The notes under the pieces were generated by a model. The model was given only the letters and a program-made list of their open reading frames with translations, made no database searches and had not been told where the DNA came from. A program made the translations under genes and the position numbers. A stretch of DNA of 48,130 nucleotides, filler included, from Jimgerdemannia flammicorona (lineage: Eukaryota): NCBI GenBank assembly GCA_003990765.1. It is 2 parts of 2 records of this genome, joined end to end, with 100 filler letters (N's around TTAATTAATTAA, not from the genome) between each part and the next. Parts side by side here need not be neighbours in the genome. Positions count along the whole stretch, not along the records: positions 1 to 24,017 come from RBNJ01001032.1; 1 more part is not named here. One strand, given 5' to 3'. Position 1 is the first letter of the stretch, and every line of letters starts with the position of its first letter. This document shows positions 3,245 to 32,735 of this stretch, in pieces.

Positions 3245-3556
3245 ATGAAGAGAAAAGGAATAAGAATGTCTATTTGCACAATGGTATACATACAATGTTT
3301 ACTTATATGTACTCACCTAGCCCTCTTAGTCAGATCTTCATTAAATGCAAAGAAAGGTAGACTTTGTTTCTTGTGACTTGTTAAGTATTATTAAGTAGAA
3401 TTATCATCAAGTATTCCTAAGTAACCAATTTCAATAGTTGGCACTAGTCATATGAACCTCCAAATTGGGAACATTTAAGCAACCTAAAAAACTTTCTTCA
3501 ATAAAATAAAAACTTATAAAAGTCAAAATTTGCCCATATGTTACATATGAATTACT

Positions 3557-4743
3557 TTTTTTTTTTTTATTTAACGGACTCTATGTCCCACGGATTTTTA
3601 TTGGAAGGGAACCTAGACTATATAGGCCAAAACCCTCCCCCACCACCCATCAAGCACTGCCCCCCCCATTAACCTAGGCTAGCTATTGTCCAGCAGCTCG
3701 ACCATGCCAGGTGTAGCAGGGCAAAGTAGCCCATACCTCATTCTACACACCATACTCTCCCTACCACTAGGGGAAACTCAGCCATATGCCAACAACCGAA
3801 AGTGCATGCCTGAGAACCCAATATATGTACAAGGTCATGCCCAAGCTGAATAGAATAGCCTCTGCCACCCCAAAAAGGATGACAGGCAAAGAAAAAACCC
3901 TCATCAAAGTACAATACGGTGAGTAGGGCCTGGTTCTCCCAGTTGAGGTGAGTAGAGGACTTATACGTGAGGTGGGAGAAGACCCCCAATACCCCACTAC
4001 TCAAGCCTGTGGGCCTTGATCATATTGCCATATCAGCTTCCAGTTCCAGTTGAGTGCAGTCAAGATGCCTGAAATGGGTAGCCTTGGGCCCCCCGACCCC
4101 CTCTGACGACCGGGGCCTAACCCCACGAATCGCCAAAAGAAGCCAAGAGTGACACCTACCACCTAACCACACCGCACCAATCAAAAGGCCCCACTGAAGT
4201 AGTACCCGCCCCAGCCCCGACAACCACCCCTAGCCTGGCACCCTACTGGTTCACTGTAATCACCCTTCCTCCTATCTGTGATGGCCATCTCTCCTCCCAT
4301 CCTGACATCACCCAAAAAACAGTCACCTATGCCAGAACCATGTTTGCCAAGAAGCTTGCCAAAGCCAGAGGGCCCCACCACAGACACCGAGGACCTACAG
4401 GTAATCTATACTGAGTACTTGATGCCCAAGATCGACTGACTCCCTATGTAGTCCAAGATACACCAAGACAACTCCTTGTTGGCGATGGCAAAAGGAAGAA
4501 GGTGCCGCACCAAAATGGGTATACCCCAGATGTAGCTGAAGGCACCAGAATCCATGAAAAAGTAGAAGAAGTACCAATCTGACACCGATAAAGGGGCAAC
4601 TCATCACTATTGCCCTCCTCTCACTATGCTCCTACAGGCATAGCAAACCAACCCAAGGTAGAGGGAGTAATATTAAGGAAAAGGGGACTTGGAAGGTTGC
4701 CTACCAAACCTTGTGACCAGTAAGGTAGCGGAGAAAGGAGCTG
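3557..4743 (-). mobile_element. SINE-like non-autonomous retroelement, copy 2
   Basis: Poly-T at the left end (poly-A on the minus strand, preceded by AATAAA). Exact 15-bp TSD tacatatgaattact at 3542-3556 and 4744-4758. Confidence 0.9.
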
Positions 4744-5949
4744 TACATATGAATTACTGCCTTTGTTATAGAGTTGGGTTTTCATATGGTCGATTTGGTA
4801 TCGTCACCATCCCTGTGATGCACTTTATGCTTAAAGTGATGCTTGTCTGATAACCTACTTCTCCAGTCTTGGAATCTGTGGGTCTGTCTGCTTTTATTAT
4901 CATAAACTACGTAAAGGTCACCACATAAATATTATGGAAGGGCCTCCAGGATGTGTGTAGAACTGTTTGGCTTGTGTAGAGTTCTAAGGACCAACCAGTC
5001 AGTCCAACACATCTGAATCAACCCCAGCAACATGCTGGTAATTCACAACTTGGTTCAAAAGTGGTAACTGCAATCTGAGTTGGTGATTGAAAATGGTATG
5101 CAATAAGGACTAGGTTGTCTAATATGAGATTTCGAATAGGCAAATGTCACAAATTATTAAGTCATTTTAATTATCCTGGTAAACAATAATGAAACAAGAG
5201 ATATTATTCTTGAAAATTATGTTCAAAATAGTCCCAGAAGCGACCATACTTCATAGTGGCAGCTGCAATACCAATCTCTTTGTATTTTAAATATTGAATC
5301 TGCTAAAACCACATTCTCTCATAAATATTCGCAAGCACCGATCTGTGTTGAGGAACCATAATAATATTAAGAAAATACTAATACAAATAAGGTCTACGAC
5401 CAAATAGAATCTTGTCATGATGGATGAGACTGCTACGATGGAGATTTTCCAAAACGTCTGTTGGGATTTTTACTAGAGGTGGGGGATTGTTTATTGAGTA
5501 AATAATGATGACGTCACCATTGATCAGACAAGCCACTTGTGCATATTTCAACAATGTCGATAGTCTGGATCCAATACGCTTGGTGAACTGTCGACAGCGA
5601 TCATTGGCGTGATATTTCCGGCTTGAACGCTTTCACCACAAGAGTTGTGCAATTCTTTTTTTGGACTGCTGGTTGCACCTGCTCCGACGAACTCCATCTT
5701 TGAAAGTTCGTCGAATTATTCTATTGTCATATTGGGTGCTAATTATATGACCGTACTATTCTGACTACTCTTCCTTTCTACCATTTCGATAATTCCGTCC
5801 GCTCTCTACGCCTGTGCCATATTATTGGCCTCATTTTACGATTCCAGCATAACTATACTGATTCTGACAATACAATAGAGTCTAATGTCTGGTAGCGTGT
5901 CGCGCTTAGCTCCACGTGCAGTGGCTGATAATTAATTGTTCCAAACGTA

Positions 5950-7240
5950 TTCAGCCTCCCCCGCGTCGCATGACCTGCCTCCCGCGCCACACAATCTACC
6001 CGTCTACAATGCCACCCGCCGCTTGAAAGAACGCTCATTAATGAAAGTGTACCGTATCAGCTGGGAATCGGTAATATTAGTTAAAGGGGCTTGGCACACC
6101 TTGACTCCCAGCCCCGGCGTGCTCTACAACTGGAACTCCACAGACCCCTCCACCTCCCATGACTGTGTTTCTGACCACAACACCAACGACTTCCCTCCCC
6201 AGCGACCTCTTCGACCCCTCCTCCTTCCACACACCTCTCCCTCGCCGATGCAACCACGGGTGGTGCCATGTTCACAAACCTAGACCACCTCATTGAAGAA
6301 ACAGACGAGACTCTTGCCATAACCCTGCCCCGCCAGAAATAACTGCTCTACTGCAGTCTTCCGTCCAACTCGTGCGTCATGCTCCAATAGCCACAACCAG
6401 CACAACTGTTCTAGTCCCGCATCAAGACAGGTTCTTGCCTGCATCCCGCGACACCTTTCTTTCCCCTCCTGCATTCGATATAGGCGTTTGACCTCAGGCG
6501 CCCCGGCGAACTCACATCGTCGCAAGTACCTGTTCGACGATGGTGCGCTGGACTCCGGAAAGGGAGGGAAGAGAGAGGAAGTGTTGCGCTGGCGACATGG
6601 GTGTCCAGTTTTTGAGGCCTGGAAGAATGTTTTATGGGAACCAGAACCTTATGAGCAAGCCGAGCCGGCAAGGGAGAGAGGGGTAAAAGGGATGGAGGGA
6701 GAAAGGGAGGGCAAGGAGGAAGGACGAGGAATGGAAAGTTAAGGTTGTATGTATTGCGTGACATATATTGGTTTGTTGTGTGTCGGGTGAGATGGCAGAA
6801 CATGACCTCTATTATATTCTTATTCATTCCCTTATGCCATTCAATCACTCATGCGCAAGACAATTCACAAGGTTAACTATCGCAATTGCACCGTCATCAG
6901 GCTGATAGAGGCATTCAACGTCACTGCCACCGACAACACTGTCATCACGTCCTTTTACGAGTTGAGGCTTTGGACGTGTCGTGGTATGTGTGGTTAGATG
7001 GACTGTGGTGATTTCGCTTGGTGCGGGACTCAGTATTATTATTTCCCTCTTCTTCTCGATGACTGTTTTTACTTCTTCCTGAAACTTCTGTCTTATCTAT
7101 ATCATCCTTCTTTCCTGCTATGCCGCAGATTGTCAACTCCAACCACATCCTGTGGTCCAACAACTGGGAGGCAGATAGGGAGACACACGAAGTACTGGAA
7201 GCTATTAGACCTGTTTGCGGAGATGGATGATCGACGAATG
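5950..7240 (+). other. Possible spliced gene or pseudogene remnant, product unknown
   Basis: CpG-retaining, GC-richer segment with exon-like pieces bounded by AG/GT, e.g. about 6901-6983 (LIEAFNVTATDNTVITSFYELRLWTCR, then GTATGT) and about 7129-7230. I could not assemble a complete model or recognise a family. Confidence 0.25.
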
Positions 7241-7354
7241 TGTTGGAGTAGGATGGGTTCCATGGTGAAATGCTGAGGTGATTTTCTTACATTTGTGAAA
7301 TATTGTTTTCTCATTTGAAATTTTGTTATTTCTTTTAGGTGTTAAGTGTGGTGC

Positions 7355-7410
<56 letters not shown>

Positions 7411-7741
7411 GGAGGACGGTATCTCTCTCCTCCGCTTATTAGTCGAGGTAGAATCGGGCAAGTTCGTGTCCGTTTATGTTTGTCTTATAGCGGAGGCAAG
7501 GGCGTCATCGAGTTGTTGGGAAAGAGTGGGTAGGGTTCGCCAGATCGGATGTCATTTAGGAGAATGAGTAAAGTTTGTGGTTCACGAGGAAATTTTTGTG
7601 ACTCGCTAGCACTATGGCAACCAGCACACATGTGTGATGTGTGATTTAGAAATTCGAACACGTTACCTTTGTTTAACAAATATTCATCACATAATGCATG
7701 TACTACAACATATTCACAAACGACTATGTTCTCTGGAAAGT

Positions 7742-10700
7742 TCAACGACTCCCGCATCCAACGAACACAAAGGGCGCCCATAATTCAGGCTCCGAACGGC
7801 ATTCTTCCATTACCGTCAACATTGCACGCTGCAAAGCGGTCGCATAATCCATCTCACGGTCAAAAAGCACGACCTTCCAATATTCCACCATGATCTTCTT
7901 AGACCAGAGGTCACTCACATTCCAAAGTGATACGACAACCCGAGGTACTCCAGCGTCGCGAAACGCCTTAGTGAACCCATTTACTCCCTCCATCGTGTTC
8001 CATCCTTTGCCAGTACCACAGGCGCTGAGAACGACCTGCTTGACATTGCTGAGGGGTAGGTTGCATATTTCCTTGGCCCATAATAGATCTTGAAATGGTT
8101 TGAATTCTTGGACGCTATGTTTTTCGGGGCTCAACACAAGAGCTCCCCTGAGCGTGTTACCCTCACCAATGGGTTCGAACACGTCCAGGCTGTCGACGGT
8201 GCCATGGCATGCAAAATGTACGTAATCCGCGGAGATAATGGATTCCACCACCATGGTTTTTGTTGCGGTCGCTCTTGTGAGCAGGACATTCGACGAGGTG
8301 ACCGATGCCTGCTGATCGGAAGACTTGGATGAAGCCAAGGAGAAGAGGCCGTGCACCATCATGGCTTCGATCTCAGCGTGGTGGAGATTGTCGTATCGGA
8401 GAGGGAATTTGAATTCGTGGTATGGCGGGATGATAGGGTTACCCACAACCAAGGAACGGAGAATCGTTTGTGCTGGCGGTTGTGACATCGCCTGACGTAT
8501 CGTCTGATGCAGGGACTTTAGAGACGTAGAAATGGAAACGGCATATCTCTCCAACAAGTATTGATTCTTGGGCTTATCGAACAAGGCCGCGAAGGGGACT
8601 GTAGCGAGATTTCCCGAGGGGACGATAATTAGTCGTTTCGATAGCCGTCCTCCTTCCGATTGCAGGTATCCCTCAATAGGCCGGATGAGAACGTTGTACA
8701 GTTGACTCAGAGAGTTAAGGCAATCTTCCTTGTTATCATCGGCGGAACCGGAATTTCCTCTCAGGAGCGAATTTCCGAAGGAAAATATAACGCTCTGTAG
8801 CGTTTTTTTGAGTGTTTTCTGGACCTTAATAAATCGAAATTGAATTGGCTCGCCAGGTGATGGAGGGATAATCCAACAATGAAGCGGACTGTCGTGGTCA
8901 TCATACGTTCGGCTTCCTCCGCCCCAATAGACGACAATATAGGCCCCTTCGGATTGCGCGTCTTCTCGGTATTGTTGGATATGCGCGGCGTAGGAATTGA
9001 GAACGTCATCGGATTCACTATCTTTACCCAATGCCTCGAGATGCCGATATTTTTCGGAGAGAACCAGCGCCTCCTCTATTTGCTTTCGGTGAACCAAAAT
9101 ATCGACATGCAGTGATCCTATCACCGGGTTGGGGTACCAGCAACCAGACTCAAACAAAGATTTATCGAACTGTGCGTAGAGTCTCTTCTCGATAAACAAT
9201 CCTTTTTGCAAGACAGTGTCCACGAACGGTTGCGAGTAAAGCTTGCACCGGAGGATGGAGACAAGTGCCCTCCCGTATAAAATTCGTAACTCATCGTAAT
9301 CATTGGTGTCGGTTGACTCGGTGGCGACCGATAATATGTCAAGCCTCTCAGCCATCAACGACTTCCGCTTTGCCTCGGGTAACGCCGGCAATGCTTGTGA
9401 GATCATTTGAAAAAGAGCGACCTTGTTAATGCTGGATTGAATGTCTGTAATAAGATCACCCCTGTTTCCGAAGTTCACCGCGATTTCTTTTGCTTTGTCG
9501 TATTCCCCAATTGCAAAACCCACTGTCTCAAGTGTCTTCCGCAGATCCTGCCTTTGGAATTCCTGGTGAACGAGCTTGCTGTATATATTCCCCAGAGCTC
9601 TCCGCGTTCGAAATACTATTATAAAATGCAAAGGGTCGTCCAGCTCCAAACAGCACTCCAATACCTGACTATACCATCTGACTGCCTCGTCCCATCGTCC
9701 CAAACGAAGGCTTGCCTTCCCAAGGTTCATCAACGCCACCGGTCTGTGGCTGAGTCTCTCCGCTTCTGGCAACAACGAAACCGGGATTTTTTCGAGAGCA
9801 ATATAATGTTCATAAGACTCCCGAACATGCTCCAAGTTGTATTCGCATTCCGCCATACTTTTGAACAGATTGAACAAACAGATTTGCCGTGCTCTATCGT
9901 GGGTCGCTTCAGTTCCATTATTGCCTGCGGGTTCATCAAGCATAGTTTCCATTTGTTCATTGTCTTGGTTGAACCATTCCAAGACTTGGCGGAAGGTCTC
10001 CAAAGCTTTCTCAAAATTGCCAAGGACGTGTTGTGATTCTCCAACGTTAAAGTAAAGTTCCCCTGCCCGCCCAGGTAGACCACAACCCACCATAAGGGCT
10101 TTGCCAAACTCCATAATCTTCGTCTCAATTGCGAAGTAAATGTGTAGGATATTGAGGGGACGATCCTTCATATCGATGAATGCAGTCTCCACTGTGGTGA
10201 TAAATCGATGAAGGTTGACAATTAATGTATCCTGCAAAGCTTCGCCCTCAAATAACTGCGATAATTCAACTGAACGGAGAAGCCTCTGGAGAGTATCAGC
10301 GAAATCCTGCATCGCGCTGCGCAGAGCAATTATGCACACGCTCTCCGCAGCCAAACGAGTTTGGAGTGAAATGTCAGCGTTTCCATCAAAGGAGGCGAGT
10401 GTGGTGTCAACGTCGTCCAGCCGAGATTTCAATTGCTCCAAGGCAGTGGCGCAGTTTACCGCAACCGAGTCCATTGTTGTTGCTTTCCTCGCTTCTTTCA
10501 CTTGATTGTAAATGCTCGTGTGCAAGTCGCGGGATTTCGTTTCTTCCGCTGTTGGTGGGAAATTCCAATAGAGCCATGCGCGATGCGGCATTTGTTCAGA
10601 TTGGGCGTCGTCTTGAAAGCTTTGTTTCACTGTTAAGGTTCGAGTATTTGTTATGGTCATGATTGAAGTGAAAGTATTAAACCTGACATAATCAACTAAT

Positions 10701-11330
10701 GCCACGTACCTTTTTCCACAGCCGCTCTGAATGTCTCCAACGAGCATTGGTTCATTATTGCTGCCAATTCGGTGGATTGTTGCGAAATAAATTCCGTCGG
10801 CCACCACGTCGATCTTAGTTGCGGAAACTGCTGTTTCAGCACTTCGCTATACGCTTCGCTATCCACAAATCCTGCGGCATGTCCACCGTCACTGGTCGAC
10901 GAAATTATGGGGTTTTGATCGTTTTGGATGCATTCTCGAAGCTTTCCCCAGTAGACTCTCATCTGGTGCCTACAGAGCAATTCGCCAGCCCATTGCACGA
11001 TCCAGTCGAGGATATCAACACCTTCGAGTTTTTGTTCAGCTGCGCGTTGTAGAGGAAAATCATCGCCGCAAGGCTTGCCTATTTCCCAAGGTGCGTTCCA
11101 ATATAATGTGTAATCTTCGAGGGCTTTCTCAATACCAAAAAGAAAAAGCGGACATAGTCATCGTGAGTGACTGAGTAACAGAGTGCATTCGCATCAGCTT
11201 GCACAGAACGCGTACCTGTCGGTTCAAACCCTAAGTGTCTAACAACTAAATTCTTGAGTTCAAGTGGTTCGAACGCGAAGGACGTTGGTTGAGGTTCCTC
11301 ACCATGTTCTTGATCTTGAAGCACGGACAT
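7742..11330 (-). CDS. TPR-CHAT (caspase-like clan CD cysteine protease), about 1135-1138 aa, 3 exons: 11330-11216, 11123(or 11114)-10710, 10629-7742
   Basis: CHAT motifs LIIVPSGNLATVPFAAL, YVHFACHG (catalytic His), VVLSACGTG (catalytic Cys), GVPRVVVSLWNVSD and WAPFVFVG. TPR-like repeats include GELYFNVGESQHVLGNFEKALETF and ALMNLGKASLRLGRWDEAVRWY. Two phase-1 GT-AG introns (GTACGC..AAG; GTACGT..TAACAG) join ORFs 11079-11369, 10696-10998 and 7742-10807 in frame. Confidence 0.92.
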
Positions 11331-11806
11331 TGCATTCACAATTCGATTTAAACCATGGACCCAGATCAATTTGGTTTTTAAGGCGATTACCCCATTGTCG
11401 TGCTATACCTGACCATTAATCATGTGCTCTTTTTGCTCCGCAGACATAAAGCATAAGCATGTTCACATGATAGGTATATAATTAGGGCGCACATTATTAG
11501 TATATAGGTTGACTAATATTTGCCCCACGGAGCGCAAACAAAGGGAGGTCTCACACGGCCTTAAAAAAACAAGCTTGGCCAATGAGTGTTGAGTGTAGTG
11601 TAGATAGTACTGGGTGTTTCCGAAAATCATTGTCGTCCGAAATCATGATCATTCGTCACAATTAACAACCGGTTTATGCTTAGCATTATCACTGCCAAAT
11701 TTGGAAAGATCAGATCACCAAAAGTAGGGTTTGTGTAATCAGAGTAGGTGATGGCAAGGAATGTAAAATCTGCGCGTTTATTCATCTTTCCTACTCACAA
11801 GCAATC
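11331..11806. promoter_or_regulatory. Putative bidirectional promoter between TPR-CHAT and the 300-aa gene
   Basis: 476-bp non-coding interval between two divergent start codons, with TATA-like tatataa/tatata near 11475-11505. Function is inferred from geometry only. Confidence 0.45.
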
Positions 11807-12709
11807 ATGAAAGTATATTTGAAGGAGTCTGAGCACACGCTCTCTCCAGATGAAAGCATTGCATTGGTGACACTGAAGTCCGTTCTGCATGCCAGCCCGT
11901 CATCAGAAGCCTTGGTGCAATCCTGCAATACGGAGGACGAAGCCGATGTCGTCGTTTTTTGCCAAGGCGAGCTCGCCGGAACACCGCCTCTGAAGCGCAA
12001 TGCCCAATTCGTCCTGACCTATGGTTTGCAGCAAGGCAAGATCAGTTTTCCTTGCGAAGACATGAATTTGCAAGGTGCGATTCGAGCCATCGATAGCCTT
12101 TGGCGTTTGGCCCGGCTTCAAGACCTTCGAAACCTACGTGCAACCCTGGGCAGCAGCCCCAACCTTGGTGTCGATTTGTTGATCCAGGAAAACGTAAATA
12201 GCGTATGGAAGGCCACCAAACAACACATAAAAGATGGACAAGAAATCCAATGCCGTTTCAAATGTTCAACGAATCTACCACAAAACGTCGAAGCCACTGT
12301 CCTTCTCATCAAGGAAGACCAGCAAATCGTTCAGGTACTGGGAAACGGCGGTTTAACAATGCATCCGAACACTGTAATCACCAACAAACTGAAGGTCGAG
12401 CTGTCTCAAGATTTTCCGAAATACTTTCAAAAGGCCCATCCCGAAGACAAGATCCCAAAACCGAAATGGACTTTTCTTTTGCTTGTCTGCGAGGGGCATG
12501 GTACGGTTGGTAAATGGCTGCAAGACGCATATCGATCACACAGATACGGCACCATTCCCAATTTGCATAAACAGCGAACAGTGTGGTTGATAAATAAAGG
12601 TGTACCAGTCACTTCAGGCGAGACATTGGCGAACGAAACTCCGCCGGATTCATTTGTACGTTGGTTGTCCATAAAGGAAGTAACCTTGACGGTCAAACAG
12701 CGACAATGA
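11807..12709 (+). CDS. 300-aa intronless protein; tentatively caspase C-terminal/DUF4384-like beta-sandwich without catalytic domain
   Basis: Clean ATG-to-stop ORF (atcATG context). AIDSLWRLARLQDLRN followed by IKDGQEIQCRFKCSTNLPQNVEATVLLIKEDQQIVQVLG and WTFLLLVC recalls the helix plus DUF4384-type strands found C-terminal to C14 domains in bacterial and fungal caspase-like proteins. No HG/C dyad context is evident. The CDS call is strong; the product call is weak. Confidence 0.7.
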   Translation: MKVYLKESEHTLSPDESIALVTLKSVLHASPSSEALVQSCNTEDEADVVVFCQGELAGTPPLKRNAQFVLTYGLQQGKISFPCEDMNLQGAIRAIDSLWRLARLQDLRNLRATLGSSPNLGVDLLIQENVNSVWKATKQHIKDGQEIQCRFKCSTNLPQNVEATVLLIKEDQQIVQVLGNGGLTMHPNTVITNKLKVELSQDFPKYFQKAHPEDKIPKPKWTFLLLVCEGHGTVGKWLQDAYRSHRYGTIPNLHKQRTVWLINKGVPVTSGETLANETPPDSFVRWLSIKEVTLTVKQRQ

Positions 12710-13455
12710 GCTGTTTTGGATACATATTATTTCAAATTCTATTATTGTATGCACGACTAGTATCGGTTGTAACCTGATGTACTGAAAAGTATCTTTGAGA
12801 CATGCTGTACACTGCGCTCTCCATCGGAAAAATAAAAATTTAAGGGCATGCAACTCACGAAAAAGCTTCGTTGTGGTGAGTTGGAATGCAATCGTTATTA
12901 TTTTTTATTTCGTCCGGGATAGCTATGGCAACTCAACGCAATAGGGACGTTATCAATTAATCCAGTTAGTTTCCCACAAGCTTTGATCTTGTGGAAAAAA
13001 AATTTAATACAAAGCTTTGATAAGATATTAGCGGCCCATTTCGATTGTTGAACGTGATACAATTGTTCCCTAGATTCCCGTCTCTGGATGCAAATTGCAT
13101 AATAGTGACAATAATCCTTCCTATGTGCACCTATAACAAGTTTACCTACCAAACAAAAGTCGCGGCGTGTACCTCAACCACAGGTCAGGTCCATAAATGA
13201 ATCATGACCCTGGCTATTCCCATGCAGCATTGTTTGTTTGATGGTGGAAGCCGCAGTAAAGAGCTTCTCCATTCAAAGAATCTGCATGACTCGGGAATTC
13301 TTATCTCTCGGTGTGCGACACCTCCATCATTCAATGCCAGCCTTGCTTGAACCCCCACTTGTCCCCCTTCCATTTCCGACCCCTGCAATGAATGTTTCCA
13401 CAATCCTGTTAAGAGGTCCGTCTGGTTCACTGCCATATTAAACTCCCCAACCACT

Positions 13456-14164
13456 ATTGACGGCATGACTTCAAAACAAAATCAAGCCAGTGTAGATTTG
13501 GGATCCAAATATTTTCGTCCAAAATCTGGTGATTGAAACCAGGTCATCTTTGATAGCGACACATCTGTTGCAGGGTTGTTGATCTATTGACTGGATGATC
13601 TGTAACATCTACGTAACAACAATATGACGTAAGTAACACTCGAGTCAATTGAAACGTTGTTGTTCAGTAATATATGCCAACTTTAATAACGGGACAACAA
13701 TCGTGCGAAACAAGCGTTTATTTGTCCGTATGACTGTTGCTCACATAGCCCCGTCCCAAATGACTGGTTGCGGCTTCGCTTTCCAGGCTTCCCACGATGC
13801 CTTTTCTCAGTAAAATCCTTAGCAAAAGCATCCATATAGATCCAAAAATTTCTTTCCCCTGTGAAACCATCACAATGACTAATCCCATTGACGGCATGAC
13901 TTAAGATTGAAATCTTTGATAGTGACACGTGTTGCAAAGCTGTTGGTCTATTGACTGGATGATCTGTAACCTCTACGTAACCAATAATATGACGTAAGTA
14001 ACACTTGAGACAATTGAAGTTTTGTTCAGTAATGTGTGCCAACTTTAATAACAGGACAACAATTGTGCGAAACAAACATGGGGCAAGATCCAGTAAGGAA
14101 ACATGTGGCGTTTATGTGTCCGTATGACTGTTGCTTGCATAGCCCCGTCCCGAAAGACCAGTTG
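13456..14164 (+). repeat. Imperfect direct duplication of about 280-315 bp (13456-13770 and 13887-14164) upstream of the gasdermin-like gene
   Basis: Shared blocks attgacggcatgactt, tctattgactggatgatctgtaac, tatgacgtaagtaacact, tgccaactttaataac, gtccgtatgactgttgct and catagccccgtccc. Confidence 0.9.
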
Positions 14165-14284
14165 ACTTAGATAACGTTTTAGAACTTCAACTCGCCGTCA
14201 CCCTTCAGTTCAATCAGCCTGACATAAATACAATACTGGTTCACCAACTGGATTTCATCCGCTTTTAATATCGAATGCATCATC

Positions 14285-15388
14285 ATGAACCTGACCAAAT
14301 ACCTCGTCTCAAGCGTCAACGAATTTCATCCGCTCCTGTTCAATGCCAATTTTATTGAGGTCAACAGTCAGTCTAGTCAGTTTCTCAAGGTCGGCGACTT
14401 TGGGCACATCGACTTCCGCACCGGTATATTTCGGTACCATGGCAACATCATCGACAGAGATGGGGGAGGTCGTCATGGTTTTCCAGCCTACGAATTCCGC
14501 GAACAGCGCTCCGTCAGCAATGACATGAATATTGACCTCAAGGAAGGGATTGATTTCCAATTGGACGCTACTGCATCATCAGAACTTCCGACTGTGTCCG
14601 CCAATGTCGGGTACACTATCGAGAAAAACAAAGCCTTCCACTTACATACCAATGGCGGGGTTCGTGAGGAGTCGATCGGGAGCGAGGACCATTGGCTGAA
14701 GCTCGCAGACTACATGGAGAAATTTGGCGAGTACTTTCGCTGCCACCCAGAGTTCACCCTCGGTGTGTACGCGCAGCATTACCCAGTAGTTACAAAGGTG
14801 CTACGATTCAAATCATTCCGGGTTGTGGCGGCGATCCAAAATTCGTCCAAGTTGGCCGCAACCTTCAACCTGTCCCCACCAACAATTATCAATGTCAACG
14901 CACAGACCAGCAGCCATTTTAATAAGTCAGGCTTCCGTATCATGGTCCTTCAGAAGGAGGCCAGCGAGGATTTCTTGTATCCTGTGCTCTATGAGCTTCG
15001 ACGGCTTCCGATTAAGGGTATGGGACAGCAAAAACCCGGAGAAGCTATGGAAACCGTCACGCTGAAGACAAAGACATACTTACGACTAGTGAAAGTCTTG
15101 GGCTTGAACGTGAGGAGGGCAGACCAGAGAGGAACATGGCAACCTGATGCTGTCAACATTAATGGTATTGCCATGATGCCACCTGAGACAACAGTCAGAC
15201 CAAACACGATATATCCTGAAGGTTATTTCTCTGACGATGCTGATGCAAATGATGAAAATGAAAGTCATAACGAAAATGATGACAACGAAACAGATGAGGA
15301 TGAGGATGAAGAAGAGGACAGTGGCGATGCAACTGATGATGAAGAGCCTTTGAACGAACATTTGAACGCTGCATTCTTCCATGACTAA
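14285..15388 (+). CDS. Gasdermin-like pore-forming protein, 367 aa, intronless
   Basis: N-terminal LKVGDFGHIDFRTGIFRYHGNI. First alternating-polarity hairpin region about aa 75-125, then a helical segment, YPVVTKVLRFKSFRV (cf. gasdermin yvvT-vl-ak strand), a second hairpin about aa 180-225, and closing YPVLYELRRL (cf. vfayrl-kl). This roughly 240-aa core is followed by a linker and a D/E-rich tail. It lies next to a CHAT protease, as is typical for microbial gasdermins. Confidence 0.75.
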   Translation: MNLTKYLVSSVNEFHPLLFNANFIEVNSQSSQFLKVGDFGHIDFRTGIFRYHGNIIDRDGGGRHGFPAYEFREQRSVSNDMNIDLKEGIDFQLDATASSELPTVSANVGYTIEKNKAFHLHTNGGVREESIGSEDHWLKLADYMEKFGEYFRCHPEFTLGVYAQHYPVVTKVLRFKSFRVVAAIQNSSKLAATFNLSPPTIINVNAQTSSHFNKSGFRIMVLQKEASEDFLYPVLYELRRLPIKGMGQQKPGEAMETVTLKTKTYLRLVKVLGLNVRRADQRGTWQPDAVNINGIAMMPPETTVRPNTIYPEGYFSDDADANDENESHNENDDNETDEDEDEEEDSGDATDDEEPLNEHLNAAFFHD

Positions 15389-15869
15389 TTAGTATATTTA
15401 GCACTTTTGCTTAGCAAGAGCTAAGAGATAGCAGCTTAAGTACCTTTTCCAGCCATCGTGATTGACAATTATGATGTATATATACATGTTTCAGTAACTT
15501 TATCATTGAAACAGAAGTATACATATTATGATAAATGATCGAGATCGTCATGTACATATAGAAGTCTATGCAAGTGTGCAAAGTTCATCTATCAATTCAG
15601 ATAGAGGCTCCTATAATATATGAAATGATATTTATCTTACGGCCTATTCAGATTAGAACCTTATTGGACCTCATATTGAGACGGCCACTTTTAGGAGAAA
15701 CTAACTTTTTAAAAGTGGTCACGTGCAGTTCATGTCATATTCTCTTGATGGTCACTCACACTCGTGACGATCATATGAGGCGCAGTTTTCTAAGTGTAAT
15801 TGGCCGAAGATAAAATACGGAAACCCAAAGAAATATATGATGACCCTGTCCTCGAACAATGCCTAGTTG

Positions 15870-18800
15870 GGTATGACGGGAACCCGAATGGGCTCCTCAC
15901 CCTCTGCATAAGGAGCACCCACTCTTATCCCCTCAACTTGCTAGCTCACTATAGACACTTAGTGAAATCTACCAGACCTATTCTCCTCCAGTTCACTAGT
16001 AATGTCAACACTTTTCAGGCAATCTGACTCTACTGCCCTGCCTATATTCAGATCCTGGCCATCTTCAATAACCTCTTGACCACTTATGTTGGGAAGTCTA
16101 AGTAATATTCTAAATACCACAACTTAAGCAGTCAATATATATTCAACACTATTACCTATTTAGCCAGGAAGATATATTGACCACTCCACTCCAGAAGAAT
16201 ATTTCTCTACTCAACCAGCCACTGCTTCTACTATCTCTGAAGCAACAGAGAGTCATATACCAAGAAATAGATTCCTAGATAGCAAACTACCTCTCCTACT
16301 AGAATAACTATTTCAATTATATCTCCACCTACTATTCCTCTACTTAATATCAGAGTCTTATATTTATTCCAATTCAGCTTAGCATCAGAGTATCTCTCAT
16401 ACCATTCCACTACTCTCTATAGTACTACTATGTCTTTTACAGAGCTCAGTCTAATCACTATATTATCAGCAAAGGCTCTTACTTTCTAATTTACTTCCAA
16501 AATATTCAACCCCCCATCTTGTATCTAATCCTATATAATAAAAGCTCCAGGGAGAGAGTATAAAAAATTAATAACAGCAGATCCCCTTATATCACTCTTC
16601 TGCTCAGAGAGAATATAATTCTCCTATACTTATTTACCAAAATAGTTATTTAGCTCTCATCCAACAGACCGATCAAAGATTGCTAAAATCCAGAGAGAAC
16701 TCCCATATACTTTAATACTCTCTCCAGCTATACTCACTAGATCTTATTATATTCTTTTTCTAATCCAGAAATACAAACTGACCATTTACTTCTATAGTAT
16801 ATTCATATACTTATATTATCTCAACTTACTTCTGATGAATTCTCTCTACTTAATCTCCAGTACTTACTGAGTCACTTCTTGTAACCTAACTACTAGTATC
16901 TTTGTAACTAGCTTGTAATCTATATCCAGAAGTATAATTGGCCTCCAGTTCTTTCACTTCTCTTTTTTTCTCTTATTCTTATATAATAAAGCAATAAGAC
17001 TCAGATATTGCCTCCTAATCTATATTCCTGAGTTAATAATCTTATCACACATCTATGTCATCTTCTTTAAAACTAACTCAACATCTGCTATCCTCTTCCA
17101 GAAATCTCACAGTAGACTATCCTCTCTCAGAGCTATTCTGAGAATCATTATTATCAATACCCTATATATCTTCTCTTCTCAGACAGATACTTCAAGATCA
17201 CCTAAGCTCTCTGCTAGGTCCAGATACCAATTCTCCAAATGTTGTTCAATATCCAGCATATCCTTTCTATCTTTCTCTTTATTCTATAGTTGTCCTCACT
17301 ATGAACTCAATTGACTCAAGATCACCAGAGTTCTAACTACTATCTCTCCTATCTTATCTAGTACTCTTTCCCACCAATATCTCACCCTCTTTATCTGAAA
17401 GAGTCTCAATAAGAACTTTTAGATCTCTTTTTCTCTTTTATATCATATCACTATAGCTGAGCTATCATATTCTTTACCCATAAATCTTTCTCCTGCCTCA
17501 GTATCTCCTTCAGCTCCTCTACTTCATATCAGATCTACTGTACTCTCCAATCTTTCTCTTTCCTATCATTCAATAGATCAGCTCATGTTAATAATAACTT
17601 CTCTAATCTCTGAGAAGCTCACCTTAACCTATTCTTCTTCTGAGCATCTCTCACCCTCTCTACCTTCCTCTAGAACTATTGAGCAACTAATTTCAGATAT
17701 TACTATTGATCTTCAATCTCCAGCCTCTTTGCCCTCTAACTAAGAATCCTGGAGCTAATGTCTACTATCTATGTATTCTATAAAGAAGACTCTCTCAGTA
17801 AGGAGATTTAGGTACTAATGTCTAGATCCTTCTCCACTACTCCTGAATCTTCCACAATCTATCAGACTCTAATGATCTAACCATGGGTACCAAACTATCT
17901 TCAAAGATTTCCAAACATTCTCTCCTCTTTTTTTTTTTTTTTATTTTACAGACTCAGAGTTCTACAGATTTTTATTGAAAGAGAACCTAGACTATATAGG
18001 CCAAAATCCTCCCCCACCACCCATCAAGCACTGCTCCCCCATTAACCTAGACTAACTATTATCCAGCAGCTTGACTATACTAGATACAGCAGGGTCTATA
18101 TTGGCCCATATCTCATTCTGTATACTATGTTCTCCCTACTACCAGGGAGAACCCAGCCATATACCAATGACCAAAAGTATATACCCAAGACCCCAATATA
18201 TATATAAGGCTATATCTGAGTCAAATAGAATAGCCTCTGTCACCCTAAAGAGAATGACAGACAAAGAAAAAACTCTCATCAAAGTATATTATGGTGGATA
18301 GAGTCTAGTTCTCCCAGATGAGATAAGTAGAGAACTTATATATGAGGTGGGAGGAGACCTCCAATACTTCACTACTCAAGTCTATAGGCCTTGATCAGAT
18401 TGCTATATCAGCTCTCAGTTCCAGTTGAGTGTAGTCAAGATGTCTGAAATAGATAGCCTTGAGCCCCCCAACTCTCCCCAATGACTGAGACCCAATCTGC
18501 TAAATTATCAAAAGAAGCTGAGAGTGATACCTACTACCTAACTACTCCACACCAATCAAAAGGCCCCACTGAAGCAGTATCTGCCCCAGCCCTAATGACC
18601 ACCCCCAGCCTGATACCTTACTGATTTACTGTAATTGCCCTTCTACCTATCTATCTACAACAACCATCTCCCCTCCTATCCTGACAATATCTAAAAAACA
18701 GTCATCTATGCCAGAACCATGCTCACCAGAAAGCTCACCAAAGCCAGAGAGCCTCACTACAGACACTGAGGACCTGCAGGTAACTTACACTGAGTACTTA

Positions 18801-20690
18801 ATGTCTAAAATCAGCTGACTCCTTATGTAACCCATAATGTACCAAGACAATATCTTATTAGCTATAGCAAATAGAAGAAGGCACTATACTAAAATAAGTA
18901 TACTCTAGATGTAGCTGAAGGTACTAGAATCTACAAAAAAGTAGAGAAGACACCAATCTAATACTGATAAATAGGCAACTCAATATTATTGCCCTCCTCT
19001 CACTATACTCCTATAGACACAGCAAACCAACCTGAGGTAGAGGGAGTAATAATAGGGGAAAGAGAACTTGGGAGATCACTTACCAAACCTTGTGACTGGT
19101 AAGGTAGCAGTGAAAAGAGTACAAACATTCTCTCCTTAGTACTCTACAGTCAGGATCCAGTCAATTCTAGAATCCAATCCTGCTACCCAGTAGATATAAA
19201 CCCTGTGATCTCCATCTAAGTTATCCTGTATTCACTAGAGAACCCAGCTTTTTAACCTCTTCTCAGTCTTCTATTCTCCTACTCTTATTAGCCATCTCCT
19301 TCCCTCCATCAGTCCTATCTAACTATCTATCATATATTATGTTAAAGTCTTCACTCAAGTAGTTAATTTCAGTCTCTACTATAGTACCTATATCTTATAG
19401 ACCTCTTATCCACTCCACCTGCTTCCTCCTTTCTGCTGAACAATAATAGGACCCAATAGTTAAAGAGCTTTAGTCTGGTCTCCTCTATACTCTCTATATT
19501 ACTCTACTCCCCTAGTGTCTAATATCTCCAATATCTCTCTTGTTCTTCTAAATCAATATGTCTATCTGACCCTACCAAACTGCTATCTCTCTCCATTCCT
19601 TTGTCCAATTTAGCATATTCAAGTTCTCATCACATCTAATATTCTATAGTAAAAACAGATTAGCATCTAACCTCTTTAATCAGTAGAAAATATTCTACTA
19701 TCTCACTGCACCTCATAATCTATTGATATTTAAAAAAAAAAAATTAGTTATACTATTCATATTGAATAATATTTTTTGAAGACCAGTCACCTACTTTATA
19801 ATTCCATGCTTATTATATCACTAACAATATTCAGATTTCTCTCTACCTTAAGCTCATCTACCTCTCTCTACTGAGTATCTAGTACTTTCAAGATCTTCTA
19901 ATAGTTCTCACTATCTATAGACTCTATATTAGACTAGTACTTCTTATATACTATCTGTCACTTCTTCAATCTCTTCTTAGATTTCCACAGATAAGTCATA
20001 TAGTCATTTATAATGACCAGAAGTACTGCCTCCCTGTTATCATCTACCTTATATTTCTCTGCCCCTAATAAGTCCACCAATAGCTTATTTCAAAACTTCT
20101 ATACTACCTCTTCTTCTTACAGGATCTCACTTTAATGTCTTTTACTAATTACCTAAAAATCTACCTCATCTAACTCATCTGCAGCAATATTCATCAATGC
20201 CTTCTATAACTACCTTTTCTCTCCTATAGTCTCATTAATATCTAGAACTATCTCCTGCTCTCCAACCCCCTGATCTCTCTCAGCATTTGTTCTTACTGAC
20301 TTATCTCAGTTCTCCTCTATCACATCCTACAGCTTATCAGTTCTCCCCCCTCCTGTGAGCACCCCATACTATACTTGGGCCTCCTTTATCATCACCTCAT
20401 TCTCTATCACCACACTCTGTCTAGAGTCTCCACTCTTTTCCAGAGTTACTATGAGAGTCTCTCTCTTCTTTTCTGCTCAAGTACTCACCCTTGATCTACC
20501 TCTTTCAGTAGTATTTTTCTTCTCTACTCTCTCTTCCAGATTCACCAATAAGTCTTTCTGATACTGCCTCTCTTATGCTCTCTCTCAGGCAGCCTAATCT
20601 AGTTATACTTACTTGCTATTTATAATCTTTATCACTGTCTTAGCCTTGAACTTCTTCTAGAATAGCTGTCTCTTCTCCACTACTTCAGCC
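15870..20690 (-). mobile_element. L1/Tx1-type LINE relic (APE endonuclease + RT), heavily mutated, apparently truncated at both ends
   Basis: Minus-strand relic motifs: NWRPIILLDIDYKLVTKIL (about 16895-16950), FSLSRRVI*GDLLLLIFYTLSLELLL (cf. RGVRQGDPLSP...EPL, about 16540-16612), and KVRAFADN (YADD-like, about 16462-16486). Endonuclease relics: SEDFN (about 19341-19356), SRIDWIL (about 19151-19171) and PWLDH (SDH-like, about 17873-17887). Boundaries are approximate. Confidence 0.85.
17927..19121 (-). mobile_element. SINE-like retroelement, copy 3, inserted in the LINE endonuclease domain
   Basis: Poly-T left end. Exact 15-bp TSD caaacattctctcct at 17912-17926 and 19122-19136. It separates the SRID and SDH-like motifs of the LINE. 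Confidence 0.9.
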
Positions 20691-24181: not shown

Positions 24182-26530
24182 ATGTTCAAAAACATCAACA
24201 AGAATGAAGCTGACCCGCTTCGCAGGGCCCGTCCTGTCTCCTCTGAATACGACGAGGAAGTCGCATACGAACGTACTCCCCACCATCACCAGAGGTACCC
24301 CATCTCCCATCTCGTTGTTCTTGCCAGACCGTAGCTTTCCTCTTCCCCTTAAACCGACGCCTTCCTCATCCCCTCCGCATCTAGCAGGAACCCTGCCTCT
24401 CTGCCCACTAGAGAGTATGGCTCGTCTGCTAGTCTCTTGGTAATATCTCACCGCCGTTTTCAATCAAATCAAACCACTCCGTCCATTTTCCTCACTTTTC
24501 CGCTCACCGAACCAACCAACCAAACCATCGCTCACCTCAACACCATCTCCAGATCTCCGACGAACAACGCCGCCGCTACCTTGAGAAGCACTTCTTCCAG
24601 GCCAGTACCTCTCCGTCTACCTCACCCGTCGACCTCAACCCACCACCCCGCGACGATTTCAGGCGCTCTCGCTCGCCTGTGGATCGGAGCGTGTCCCCAA
24701 CCTACTCAAACCCGGCGCACTCTCCCGTCGACCGGAGCGTCTCCCAGTCGTATGACAAGTACGACACTTACGCCCGTGATTCACTCATCGACCCGCAGGC
24801 TAGCGACGAGCAGTACTTCTACGCTGACGATTATTCAGGTACTTTGGGAATCGAGCGCAGGAACGAGAACGAGGATACACGCATTCGCGCGGTATGGTTT
24901 GTGTGCTTGTTTATTATTATTATTTTTATTCATCATCTTCATGTTAAATCCTGCAGAACCACCTGTGAAAGCGGCTCCGTACCAAGGTCGTCATCTTATT
25001 GCCAAGACCCAGCCGCAGCAGGAGCCCTCGCCCGTCTCGCCTGTCACCCCGAGTCGTAGCTACCTCCATGACGACGACGGTATTATGGATTCAGAGATGC
25101 GAGGCTCGCGTGCGGCGACGCCGATGCCCACAGGTGATCAACAGTACCAGCAGCAGCAGCAGCAGTACCAGCAGCAGCAGCAGTACCAGCAGCAGCAGTA
25201 TCGACAGCAGCAGCAGCAGCACCAGTACCAACAGCACCAGTACACGGACTCGGCGCCTACACGGTACCAGCAACCGCCTCAACCAGCCGCGGTGCGTTAC
25301 GAACAGCCCAGTCAGCAGCACATGTCCATGACAGCCGAGGTCATCTATGGCACCTCGCCAACCCACTCACAAGAGTTGCCTCAGAGGTCCTCCTCCCGCA
25401 ACCAGCACTCTTCCCCCCACCACGCCCACCACGCGTCCTCCTCCATCTCTTCCTGGAACCAGCCCGATCGTCACCCCTCGCAACGCCAGCAGCCCCCGCC
25501 TTCCCTCGGCCCCACCCCGCCCAACTCCTCCTCCTCTCGCCATGCGCCCCTGACCCCACTCGTCATCCCCCCGACCCCCGTCCGTTCGACCTCGTCCCCC
25601 ATCGTAAACCCGAGCGACCTCCCGCGTGGATTCAATCCGTCCCCTTACTCGCCCCCTTCGTCTAATCCACAATCTCCGGCTACCACTAGCCCGCTCGCCC
25701 CACCACCAGTACCGACAGGCAATTCCCACTCGACCCCGATGCGCGAGAAGCCATCAGCGTCGTCGAGCAAGTCGAAAAAGGAGGACTTCACGCCTACAAG
25801 CGAGGCCGAGGCCAACGTGGCCAAGGCTATCAAGTACCACGAGGCCGGGAAGCTCGAGGAAGCCACCAAGTACTTCAGACTTGCTGCGGAGCAGGATTCG
25901 CCGTTGGGCATGTTCCTGTATGGGATCTCGCTGAGGCACGGTTGGGTAAGTGTCCTTTGTGACTGCAAAAAAATGCGTTTGACACACTATCGATCCTTAC
26001 GCATTGCTGACCTCCATCACCTCGTCGTTCTTCTCGACACATAGGGCTGCGCGCCAAACCCCCACCTCGCCTTCCAGTATCTCCAAAAGTCGGCCGAGTT
26101 TGCCGTCGTCGATCTCAACAACCTCAAGACGGTCAACACGTCCGCGAGCAAGGGTGAACTCGTTATGGCCATCTACGAGCTCGGCGTTTCCTTCCGCCAC
26201 GGCTGGGGTGTGCCAAAGAACAAACAGACCGCCGCGTACTACTTTGAGATTGCGGCGAATCTGGTGAGATTTTGTGGCCTGTTGTTTTCGTTGTCTGCTT
26301 TGATTCGACGTTATGAGTTTGATTCTAACCATCTACCGCGTCATTCGCGAATCTCCAAACTACAGGGCGATCCCGATGCCCAGAACGACCTGGCCCACTG
26401 CTTCTATCACGGTCACGGCGTCAAGAAAGACATGTTTAAAGCCGCTAAATACTATCGCCTTGCGGCGGCACAGGGCCATGGGATCATGGGCAACTCTTGG
26501 ATCTTCAAGGAGAAATACAACGTCGCCTAA
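24182..26530 (+). CDS. Sel1-like repeat protein of the Dsf2/Nif1-like fungal family; exons 24182-24294, 24388-24439, 24553-24838, 24957-25945, 26045-26263, 26366-26530
   Basis: Phase-consistent GT-AG model. Low-complexity S/P/Q-rich N-terminus (polyQ about 25140-25245). C-terminal SLRs MFLYGISLRHGWGC, AIYELGVSFRHGWGVPKN and AQNDLAHCFYHGHGVKKD, with family-type ending GNSWIFKEKY. The first two exons are less certain. Confidence 0.85.
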
Positions 26531-27903: not shown

Positions 27904-29332
27904 TAGTGCTCGGAATGAATCGAGGTCCAATTCAATTCAAGTTTTGATTTGAACCTTAATTTTCAAATTCAATAATTCTATTTTTTTTGTTTTACGGACT
28001 CATGTCCTGCGGATTTTTATTGGAAGGGAACCTAGACTATATAGGCCAAAACCCTCCCCCACCACCCACCAATAACCTAGGCTAGTTATTGTCCAGCAGC
28101 TTGACCATGCCAGGCATAGCAGGGCCGAAAAGGCCTGCACCTCATTTTGTGCACCATGCTCTCTCTACTACCAGGGGAAACCCAACCATACGCCAATGAC
28201 TGAAAGCACACCCAACATATGTACAAGGCCACACCCGAGCCAAATAGAATAGCCCCTGCCACCCCAAAGAGAATGATAGGTAAAGAAAAAACCCTTGTCA
28301 AAGCACAATATGGTGGGTAGGGCCTAGTTCTCCCAGTCGAGATGAGTAAAGGAGTTATACGTGAGGTGGGAGGAAACCCCCAATACCCCACTACTCAAGC
28401 CTGCGGGCCTCGATCATGTTGCCATATCAGTTCCCAGTTCTAGTTGAGTGTAGCCAAGATGCCTAAAATGGGTAGCCTCGGGCCTCCCGACCCCCCCTGA
28501 TGACTGGGGCCCAACCTCGCTGACTGCCAAAAGAAGCCGATAGTGACACCTACCACCTAACCATGCTGCACCAATCAAAAGGCCCCACCAAAGCAGCACC
28601 TGCCCCAGCCCTGACGACTGCCCCCAGTCTGGTATCCTACTGGTTCACCATTATTATCCTTTCTCCTATCTGTGATGGCCATCTCCCCTTCCATCCCAAC
28701 AACACTCGAAAAACAGTCACATATGCCAGAACCATGCTCATCGGGAAGCTCGCCAAAGCCAGAGGGCCCCACCATAGGTACTGAGGACCTGCAAGTAACC
28801 TACACTGAGCACTTGATGCCCAAGGTTGGCCGACTCTCTACATAGCCTGAGATACACCAAGACAACACCTTGTTGGTGATGGCAAAAGGAAGAAGGCACT
28901 GCACCAAAACGGGTATACCCCAGACATAGCCGAAGACACCAGAATCTGCGAAAAAGTGGAGGAAGCACCAATCCAACACCAATAAAGGGGCAACTCATTA
29001 CCATTGCCCTCCTCCCACTATGCCCTTACAGATACAGCAAACCAACCCGAGATAGAGGGGGTAATATTAGGGGAAAGGAGACTCGGAAGATCGCCTACCA
29101 AACCTTGTAGCTGGTAAGATAGCAGAGAAAGGAGCTGATTCAATAATTCTATGAAAACATCCAAATTTGATAAAATTTAGCTTATTAGATTTTTTTTTAT
29201 CTAGCATAATAAGTATTGTTAAATTTGGTTGAGTTATTACATTTCAAAGTTCAACTCTTAATTTGGACCTCAATTTGATTTGAATCAAATTGAATCAATC
29301 CCAATTTGATTCAATTTATTTGGGGAGCACTA
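27904..29332. mobile_element. hAT-type MITE interrupted by SINE-like copy 4
   Basis: Termini tagtgctc...gagcacta. 8-bp TSD gctgaagg (27896-27903) / gctgaaga (29333-29340), 7 of 8 matching. Internal sequence is similar to the MITE at 39256-39615. Confidence 0.8.
27982..29137 (-). mobile_element. SINE-like retroelement, copy 4
   Basis: Poly-T left end. Exact 15-bp TSD attcaataattctat at 27967-27981 and 29138-29152. Confidence 0.9.
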
Positions 29333-31058: not shown

Positions 31059-32735
31059 TCAATCATCGCTCTCAGGCTCCTCAAAGATCTTTTCGGCAAC
31101 GACGTACTTGTCTTCGTACTTGACCAATCTCTTTACGCATGCGACGGTCGACGGCAGGGTCAGGAATAACCAAGCCGCGACCGGTAACCATACATAATCA
31201 AATGCGTTCTTCCAGGTACGCGAGTCGGCCTTGAGGAGGAGCTTGCGGTCAACGGTGCGGTGCAGGTTCTCGTAGACGGCAAGCATGCCGAACAAAGGCA
31301 TAGGCAGCAGGACGGTGATAATTTTGACGAGGTTCCAAAGGGTGGCGTAAAATTCAGAGTTGAGGATCGGATTTTCGGAGGGGGTAACGTACGACAGGAG
31401 TGGATGTGGTGGAAACAAGAGAAACTGCATCACGGGCACGGCAGCGAACATGAGCCAGCCAGAGGTGCAAGGAATCATGTGCGCCTCAAGGACGTGGAAG
31501 CAGACCACGATCTTGTCAAACACGTTGGCGAAGGAGCTGTAAAGGCTCTGCTTGTTGGAATTGAGGAAGCCAGATTTCGTGTCGAGGCTGCTCTGGTGTT
31601 TCGCGGTGAAAGTGCCCTTGAGGGTGTAGGTGACATCGGCGACGCCGTTCATGTGGCGGGTGGCCTGCACGTATCGTGCATAAAGGTTTGACACGTATCC
31701 AGTCGTCTGCACGTTGGTGAGATTGATGGGAACGAAAATGGGGACCGAGCGCGCCAAACCGTTCGTCTTAAAGAAGCATTTGAGCCACATATGCATATCC
31801 TCGCCGACAGAATCGGCATCCACGTCCCAGTACCCCACTCGCTCGGCCAAGACCATACTCAGGCTGTAAGTGGAGCATGGGAAGGCAAGGCCTCGGCTGT
31901 TGCTCAAGTTCTGCATTACCATGATCGACCATGTGGTATCCGTGACACGCACAGCCGCAGGAACGTCCATCGCATTGCGGGAGAAGAAGATCGGGGGAGA
32001 GCACAGAGTGGTATAAGGATCCTCGGCCTGGCTCAGAGCTTTCTCGACCTTTAACACACAGAGAAAAGAATATGAAAGGCAAATAAATAAATAAAAATAA
32101 AAATAACCTCCACACCCGCCCCTACCCCAAAACCGGATTTATGCCACCAACAGTTTCAATACCATTTTTCCCAAGCAGAAACTCCACAAATACCAGTTCC
32201 TCTCTCCCCCCACCCACCAAAAAAATCAATGTACTATCCTCACCTCCTTTATATACAATTCAGGGATAGCCGAATCTGAATCCGTAACAGTGAAGACGAC
32301 CCTGCGCTTCTCCACATTGCGATGGATCATGTCCTGGGCAGCGGCCTTTGCGGCGTATGCAACATTGCTGCCCTTGCCGCGGGCTTCGCCAGGGATACCG
32401 GACGGGTGAACGGTGACGATGAAGTGGAGAAATTGCTTGGCGAAGTAGTCTTGCAGGCTTTGGGCTTTGAACTCGTGATTCGACTCAGAGGCCTCCATGG
32501 CCAGGATGATGACGTAATTGGTTTGCGCGTTCCTGAAAAAATGGGCATAGAATGAGTACGCAAGTTCTGTGGTGCCATAGATATCCCCGATAGAATACCC
32601 TTGCTATTCAGTCGTCTTCCGAGTAACCAAGAATCACAGATTCCCCTCCATCCATTTGACCTTTCTTGATTGCGTATGCTGTCCAGAAACTCATCCGAAA
32701 AAAAAAACTTCCTCGCACCGAATATATCACTTCCT

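Follow-up and report, generated by a model that had tools for sequence, protein, structure and literature searches.

The window analyzed here, a 48,130-nucleotide stretch (filler included) from the genome of Jimgerdemannia flammicorona (order Endogonales, Mucoromycota; assembly GCA_003990765.1), contains a gene for a TPR-CHAT caspase-like protease and two smaller open reading frames, ORF2 and ORF3. Tentatively, we read the protease gene and ORF2, which lies head-to-head with it and encodes a candidate DUF4384-like protein, as a functional pair that echoes a gene neighborhood of cyanobacteria, and ORF3 as an apparently expressed orphan near this pair. According to this reading, the TPR part would bind a trigger or a partner; the CHAT His/Cys dyad would cut a target; and ORF2 would be the bound partner or the substrate, by analogy with Csx30 proteins that have DUF4384-type C-terminal domains. 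The gene structures, the protease domains with their dyad, the apparent transcription of ORF3, and the cyanobacterial association are demonstrated, whereas the DUF4384 fold of ORF2, such binding or cleavage, and likewise any cell-death output we infer.

Gene Structures and Coding Potential

Three intact frames are seen at the positions given in a preliminary description of this DNA: 7742–10807 on the minus strand (1021 aa), 11807–12709 on the plus strand (ORF2, 300 aa), and 14285–15388 on the plus strand (ORF3, 367 aa). From stop to stop, the protease frame, ORF2, and ORF3 span 1034, 386, and 341 codons, respectively, and all three are longer than the longest frame observed in 300 composition-preserving block shuffles of positions 4701–17930 (233 codons; median 141). 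In-frame codon usage correlates with that of the CHAT gene both for ORF2 (r 0.58) and, more strongly, for ORF3 (r 0.71), while the shifted frames yield 0.00–0.24; GC content of about 0.48 and GC content at third codon positions of 0.52–0.55 are common to the protease gene, ORF2, and ORF3. Given these frame lengths and codon usage, the three frames are genuinely coding, or were so until recently, and belong to one genome.

The protease gene itself extends beyond its frame and occupies positions 7742–11330. A public protein annotated as [quoted passage not shown] (1123 aa; hereinafter P0001) is identical to the 1021-aa frame at 962 of 962 residues, and its mapping to the window by tblastn places three exons, at 11330–11214, 11079–10711, and 10630–7745 plus the stop codon. 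Hence, the frame described earlier stands, but the gene is longer than was described and, in the three-exon public model, has two short introns. The species named for P0001 belongs to Mucoromycota, in line with the lineage supposed in the preliminary description. The protease gene is thus already present in public databases; ORF2 and ORF3 appear not to be annotated publicly, since neither has a self-match in the protein collections.

ORF2 begins 476 bp from the start codon of the protease gene, and by these coordinates the spacer at 11331–11806 is possibly a shared promoter region of the two divergent genes. ORF3 starts 2.9 kb from the same start codon. It is this proximity that links the protease gene, ORF2, and ORF3 to each other.

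TPR-CHAT Protease

The encoded protein is a genuine fungal TPR-CHAT protein (caspase-like, clan CD) with putative proteolytic activity, and its gene is confirmed as a protease gene. The Pfam CHAT domain (PF12770) is matched at aa 699–1017 of the 1021-aa frame with 188.4 bits (cut-off 24) and E 2.5e-55, covering profile positions 3–288 of 289, and several TPR families are matched at approximately aa 250–411. When the protease is aligned with its eleven best relatives (12 sequences in all), the columns of His868 (in ACHG) and Cys930 (in LSAC) do not vary; from knowledge of the CHAT family we take these residues to be the catalytic dyad, so that the TPR-CHAT assignment and the intact dyad of the preliminary description are both borne out. 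Pfam recognizes no family in the N-terminal 345 aa of P0001.

After the self-match, the best of 303 significant matches are TPR-CHAT proteins of Nostoc and other cyanobacteria, with 25–35% identity, and no named fungal protein is found among the matches listed (120 of 303). A prokaryote collection (one genome per species) was scanned with patterns from an alignment in which cyanobacteria dominate; of 609 candidate stretches, 545 were confirmed. Judging by record titles, cyanobacteria account for 75 of the 77 best loci.

Cyanobacterial TPR-CHAT Neighborhoods

The neighborhoods of these 77 loci were analyzed over flanking DNA reaching at most 10 kb. Neighbors in the first 40 loci were scanned against Pfam (131 of 139 frames, the eight longest being left out), and loci 41–77 were checked with our own DUF4384 profile hidden Markov model (HMM) only, built from domains at 30 places in cyanobacterial genomes. 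With this HMM, a DUF4384-bearing frame of approximately 730–780 aa (one of them cut at the locus end) is seen in 11 of the 77 loci (L009, L010, L012, L032, L035, L002, L036, L046, L052, L068, and L075). Any DUF4384 match at E≤1e-6 is present in 27 of 151 cyanobacterial genomes, and a rough estimate puts the number of such loci expected by chance at far below one. In the first five of the listed loci the frame is an adjoining Peptidase_C14 protein of approximately 730–760 aa; four of the five also match Pfam DUF4384 at E≤1e-5, and all five retain the His and Cys residues.

This pairing of a TPR-CHAT protein with an orthocaspase-DUF4384 protein could be a two-protease cascade; we know of no description of it. 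Other neighbors are seen as well: a CHASE2-CHAT gene in L001, L006, and L031, a DUF928 gene in L005, L006, L013, and L031, a DUF1822 gene in L001, and a TPS-domain gene in L005. Together, they may form a set that recurs near certain TPR-CHAT genes of cyanobacteria.

ORF2 and the DUF4384 Domain

Judged from its sequence, ORF2 (11807–12709, plus strand) probably contains a diverged DUF4384-like domain, with a core at approximately aa 136–230. In the protein language model atlas, it is well recognized (recognition 2696), and its nearest cluster (score 0.94, 210 of 256 features shared) is bacterial, mainly cyanobacterial, with DUF4384 in 24% of the members. Our DUF4384 HMM scores ORF2 at 7.2 bits over aa 136–180 (profile positions 10–50); this score is reached by three of 3000 shuffles of ORF2, and the reversed protein scores −0.6. 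When the same HMM is applied to the 93 frames of at least 100 aa in the window, ORF2 ranks first (6.9 bits), followed by a frame with 1.4 bits. Stand-alone DUF4384 proteins of 240–342 aa occur in cyanobacteria, and a role of ORF2 as a DUF4384 partner of the protease is plausible.

A series of results weighs against this interpretation. The preliminary description called the middle gene DUF4384-like, and the likeness holds, weakly, in the atlas and with our HMM; but Pfam yields no DUF4384 (PF14326) match at E≤1, and the hhalign comparison of ORF2 with 13 stand-alone cyanobacterial DUF4384 proteins, although in the same register as the HMM match, has a probability of 3.4%. With five caspase-DUF4384 proteins, hhalign finds nothing (0.1% probability). 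The AlphaFold2 (AF2) model of ORF2 has a predicted local distance difference test score (pLDDT) of 37.0, the least bad part being strands at aa 146–229 (about 49). ORF2 is absent from the protein collections searched: a word search of these collections reveals no relatives (the large library was not searched in full with HMMER), nor are any seen among 3576 frames around cyanobacterial CHAT genes, or in cyanobacterial genomes, first five and later 401, where matches in 16 genomes at E≤0.1 per genome are at chance level, or in metagenome contigs, where none of 35 pattern matches was confirmed. ORF2 also lacks the caspase domain carried by most cyanobacterial DUF4384 neighbors. No contig of the two public sequencing runs described below covers ORF2, which is no evidence of silence. 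Finally, the cyanobacterial type of the protease denotes its nearest relatives found and is not a phylogenetic placement.

More generally, ORF2 shows no meaningful match in Pfam, PADLOC, NCBIfam, or PDB sequences. Two candidate identities were rejected: the NCBIfam match to Sau3AI (E 0.042) is due to chance, and the best in-frame match in the cyanobacterial genomes is to a WD40 protein.

ORF3 and the Gasdermin Model

The preliminary description proposed a three-part pyroptosis-like system, in which a trigger is detected by the TPRs, the ORF3 tail is cut off by CHAT, ORF3, with a gasdermin fold or a comparable pore-forming one, permeabilizes the membrane, and ORF2 modulates the protease. This model, which draws on proximity and a weak language-model lead, appears unlikely to us. 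Its starting point is the arrangement of the genes: with 2.9 kb between the starts, ORF3 (14285–15388, plus strand) falls within the 10-kb distance used for fungal gasdermin/protease clusters in PMC8851545. Such proximity is necessary for this cluster type, while the family is not defined by it. The same source describes the processing of the gasdermin Q1-6 of Podospora by the neighboring TPR-CHAT protein Q2L-6, i.e., experimental activation of a gasdermin by a protease of this type, and ORF3, as discussed below, is apparently transcribed.

The second line of support comes from the atlas. The best ORF3 matches there are fungal clusters without a family (0.94–0.95), one of them automatically named MACPF; the nearest family-bearing cluster is Bact_GSDM (0.88, 159 features shared, family in 11% of the members), and all ten best family-bearing matches belong to the Bact_GSDM family or its clan. 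However, ten of ten is also obtained for a third of shuffled proteins, and the recognition of ORF3 (1640, below the 2300 mark) and its 159 shared features are both rated weak. The low-confidence structure model of ORF3 would be strand-rich up to approximately aa 222, with helices after that and, from approximately aa 310, an acidic tail that is probably disordered, as could suit a gasdermin; but this single-sequence AF2 model (pLDDT 32.9, predicted template modeling score 0.20) is unusable for a search for the gasdermin N-domain fold, which has a twisted central antiparallel sheet and an N-terminal helix, the prediction being poor because there are no relatives for an alignment. The gasdermin-like strand motifs mentioned in the preliminary description do not stand out: the period-2 amphipathicity of the strands is not above chance, the observed count being reached by 212 of 500 shuffles, and no gasdermin model is matched. 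A complex prediction for CHAT (aa 690–1021) with ORF3 (aa 1–310) gives no verdict either way, with a score of 0.00 and controls that did not fold.

Direct comparisons speak against the model. ORF3 has no match at E≤1 in a Pfam library that holds Gasdermin (PF04598) and from which Bact_GSDM (PF26164) is absent, and no match in PADLOC, which presumably holds bGSDM models, in NCBIfam, or among PDB chains at E≤10. A HMMER search of 1,835,955,588 representatives gives no matches; in the word search none of 1139 candidates scored; none of 61 pattern matches in metagenome contigs was confirmed; and no relatives are found among the 3576 frames around cyanobacterial CHAT genes or in the window itself. 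A gasdermin is also absent from the 131 scanned neighbors of the closest cyanobacterial relatives; the 27 of these neighbors that have no Pfam family do not match any gasdermin model in PADLOC either. Six Mucoromycota genera were sought in supplementary file 3 of PMC8851545, where a single row, for Bifiguratus, lists zero gasdermins, and full-text literature searches, judged by their listings and by passages of PMC10197012 and PMC10584675, returned no report of a gasdermin from Mucoromycota.

Of a het-Q1/het-Q2-like cluster, the protease half is therefore present, and no neighbor is recognizable as a gasdermin by Pfam, PADLOC, PDB, or HMMER. ORF3 as a gasdermin is unproven, and the label should not be propagated unless a structure or an assay backs it. 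A long shot is an even bolder variant, according to which a TPR-CHAT/DUF4384 module of cyanobacterial type was taken up by an Endogonales fungus and wired to ORF3 as a strand-rich executioner, ORF3 being a gasdermin of extreme divergence or a pore-former with a new fold. Returning to the pairing of the protease with ORF2, which we prefer, ORF3 is best described as an apparently transcribed, lineage-restricted orphan that could be a downstream target of the protease.

Transcription

Parts of the region are present in two small public runs, X1 and X2. Neither of them is recorded as RNA, but both are likely to be so because of GT..AG joints and patchy cover: contigs of both runs join 6746 to 6860 and 6982 to 7128, so that 113 and 145 nt, respectively, are skipped at GT..AG boundaries. 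Transcription is apparent for ORF3. An unspliced X1 contig of 1418 nt matches the plus strand over its full length at 14166–15583 with no differences and a depth of 12.2; it includes ORF3 together with 119 nt upstream and 195 nt downstream, although contigs of this kind cannot prove transcript ends. In X2, ORF3 is covered by three pieces with six differences from the window, of which three are synonymous and three (T193A, P299L, and S327N) are not. The protease gene is represented in X1 and X2 by few short pieces of low depth, and the missing cover over most of it does not indicate silence.

These data bear on the possibility that there is no system at all, i.e., that the protease gene happens to share a repeat-rich, gene-poor stretch with ORF2, a leftover frame that may be silent, and with ORF3, an unrelated gene specific to the lineage. 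Such a coincidence seems to us somewhat unlikely, yet several observations agree with it. Co-occurrence of the three genes is unsupported, ORF2 and ORF3 being without relatives in any collection searched; the ORF3 contig is its own, unjoined to the other genes; a 1.6-kb spacer containing a duplication separates ORF3 from ORF2; the contigs of the protease gene are few and shallow, with none over ORF2; and since six differences in ORF3, half of them changing a residue, are too few, constraint is not demonstrated. On the other hand, it would be odd for the DUF4384 likeness of ORF2 and the cyanobacterial association to coincide by chance; none of the three frames is broken, and their codon usage agrees; and fungal cell-death pathways are often organized as two- or three-gene clusters, as stated in PMC10197012 and PMC12881547.

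The spacer between ORF2 and ORF3 contains a tandem duplication on the plus strand (13561–14164), with units at approximately 13561–13770 and 13925–14164 that are 87–93% alike. The ORF3 contigs start at 14166 (X1) and 14150 (X2), i.e., at the end of this duplication, and its unit of approximately 210–240 nt may be a duplicated promoter region.

The spliced contigs mentioned above cover positions 6500–7345 with a depth of 54–133, compared with 12 for ORF3, and define introns at 6747–6859 and 6983–7127. The joined exons have no long open frame, and many of the contigs run into unlike sequence; this may be a multi-copy transcribed element.

Repeats and Surroundings

The three genes are bracketed by copies of a dispersed repeat of approximately 1.1 kb. 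Four direct copies, with 67–90% identity, are located at 15–1120, 3556–4700, 17930–19079, and 27975–29094; the second of them (plus strand; repeat families D1–D4, D7, and D8) flanks the genes on the left, and the third, in direct orientation to it, on the right. The preliminary description regarded the flanks as decayed transposons. Repeats do lie on either side, but Pfam finds no transposase, reverse transcriptase, or integrase in any of 45 flank or spacer frames, and the repeat contains no recognizable protein domain; decayed transposons are a plausible interpretation of the flanks.

The repeat copy near 18 kb lies within a region of strongly negative GC skew (16–21 kb). Further along the window, a 535-aa frame without a Pfam family is found in a stretch of 62% GC (24437–26044), a Glyco_trans_2_3 frame at 31059–32057 (E 2.1e-13), and a weak reverse-transcriptase remnant (RVT_1, E 0.00099) at 41151–43079. 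Near 45 kb, purine and GC skews, both strong, change sign, which suggests inverted repeat-rich elements at the window end.

Implications and Comparison With Known Systems

What is firmly established is modest: the protease gene was already public, while ORF2 and ORF3 are new to the collections searched, ORF3 being apparently transcribed. If the protease and its neighbors cooperate, the range of protease-gated cell-death or immune modules would reach beyond Dikarya to early-diverging mycorrhizal fungi, and the cyanobacterial TPR-CHAT/DUF4384 neighborhood would gain its first eukaryotic counterpart. Should ORF3 prove to be an executioner, Mucoromycota, for which the survey table in PMC8851545 shows no gasdermins, would have a cell-death system of three components that is triggered by a protease.

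The preliminary description presented CHAT and TPR partners of gasdermins as typical of bacteria and knew of no characterized three-component set in such a fungus. This background is outdated and the novelty overstated, as clusters of gasdermin and TPR-CHAT genes in fungi are already characterized. According to the survey data given in PMC8851545, a protease gene lies within 10 kb of 80% of 1,884 fungal gasdermin genes, and a CHAT protease gene within 10 kb of 19% (353) of them. The locus resembles these clusters in that the protease, of approximately 1000 aa or more, has TPRs at the N-terminus and CHAT at the C-terminus, and in that a small gene lies within 10 kb. It differs in that ORF3 has neither a gasdermin match nor relatives; in the extra DUF4384-like gene; in the host, whose phylum is without a gasdermin in the supplementary table of PMC8851545; and in the nearest protease relatives found, which are cyanobacterial rather than fungal.

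In bacteria, a neighboring caspase-like or CHAT protease releases the pore-former, as reported in bioRxiv 10.1101/2021.06.07.447441. The concept of a neighboring protease and pore-former would be shared with these bGSDM pairs, whereas ORF3 differs from their gasdermins by its lack of a PADLOC bGSDM match.

A further parallel is offered by the type III-E CRISPR Craspase. There, Csx30 is the substrate of the TPR-CHAT protease Csx29, and one Csx30 group ends in a DUF4384 domain, as described in bioRxiv 10.1101/2022.08.17.504292. A TPR-CHAT protease and DUF4384 on its partner would thus be common to both; this is an analogy only, made without a comparison of ORF2 and Csx30. Unlike in Craspase loci, no Cas7-11, CRISPR array, Csx31, or RpoE was noticed among the window ORFs of at least 150 aa, where no dedicated search was made.

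The comparison closest to the pairing that we favor is with the cyanobacterial loci L010, L012, L032, and L035. The cyanobacterial neighbor, of approximately 730–760 aa, has a caspase domain, whereas ORF2, with 300 aa, is without it and has marginal similarity; what the loci share with the fungal one is that the closest relatives of the protease (26–35% identity) are located beside a DUF4384-type gene.

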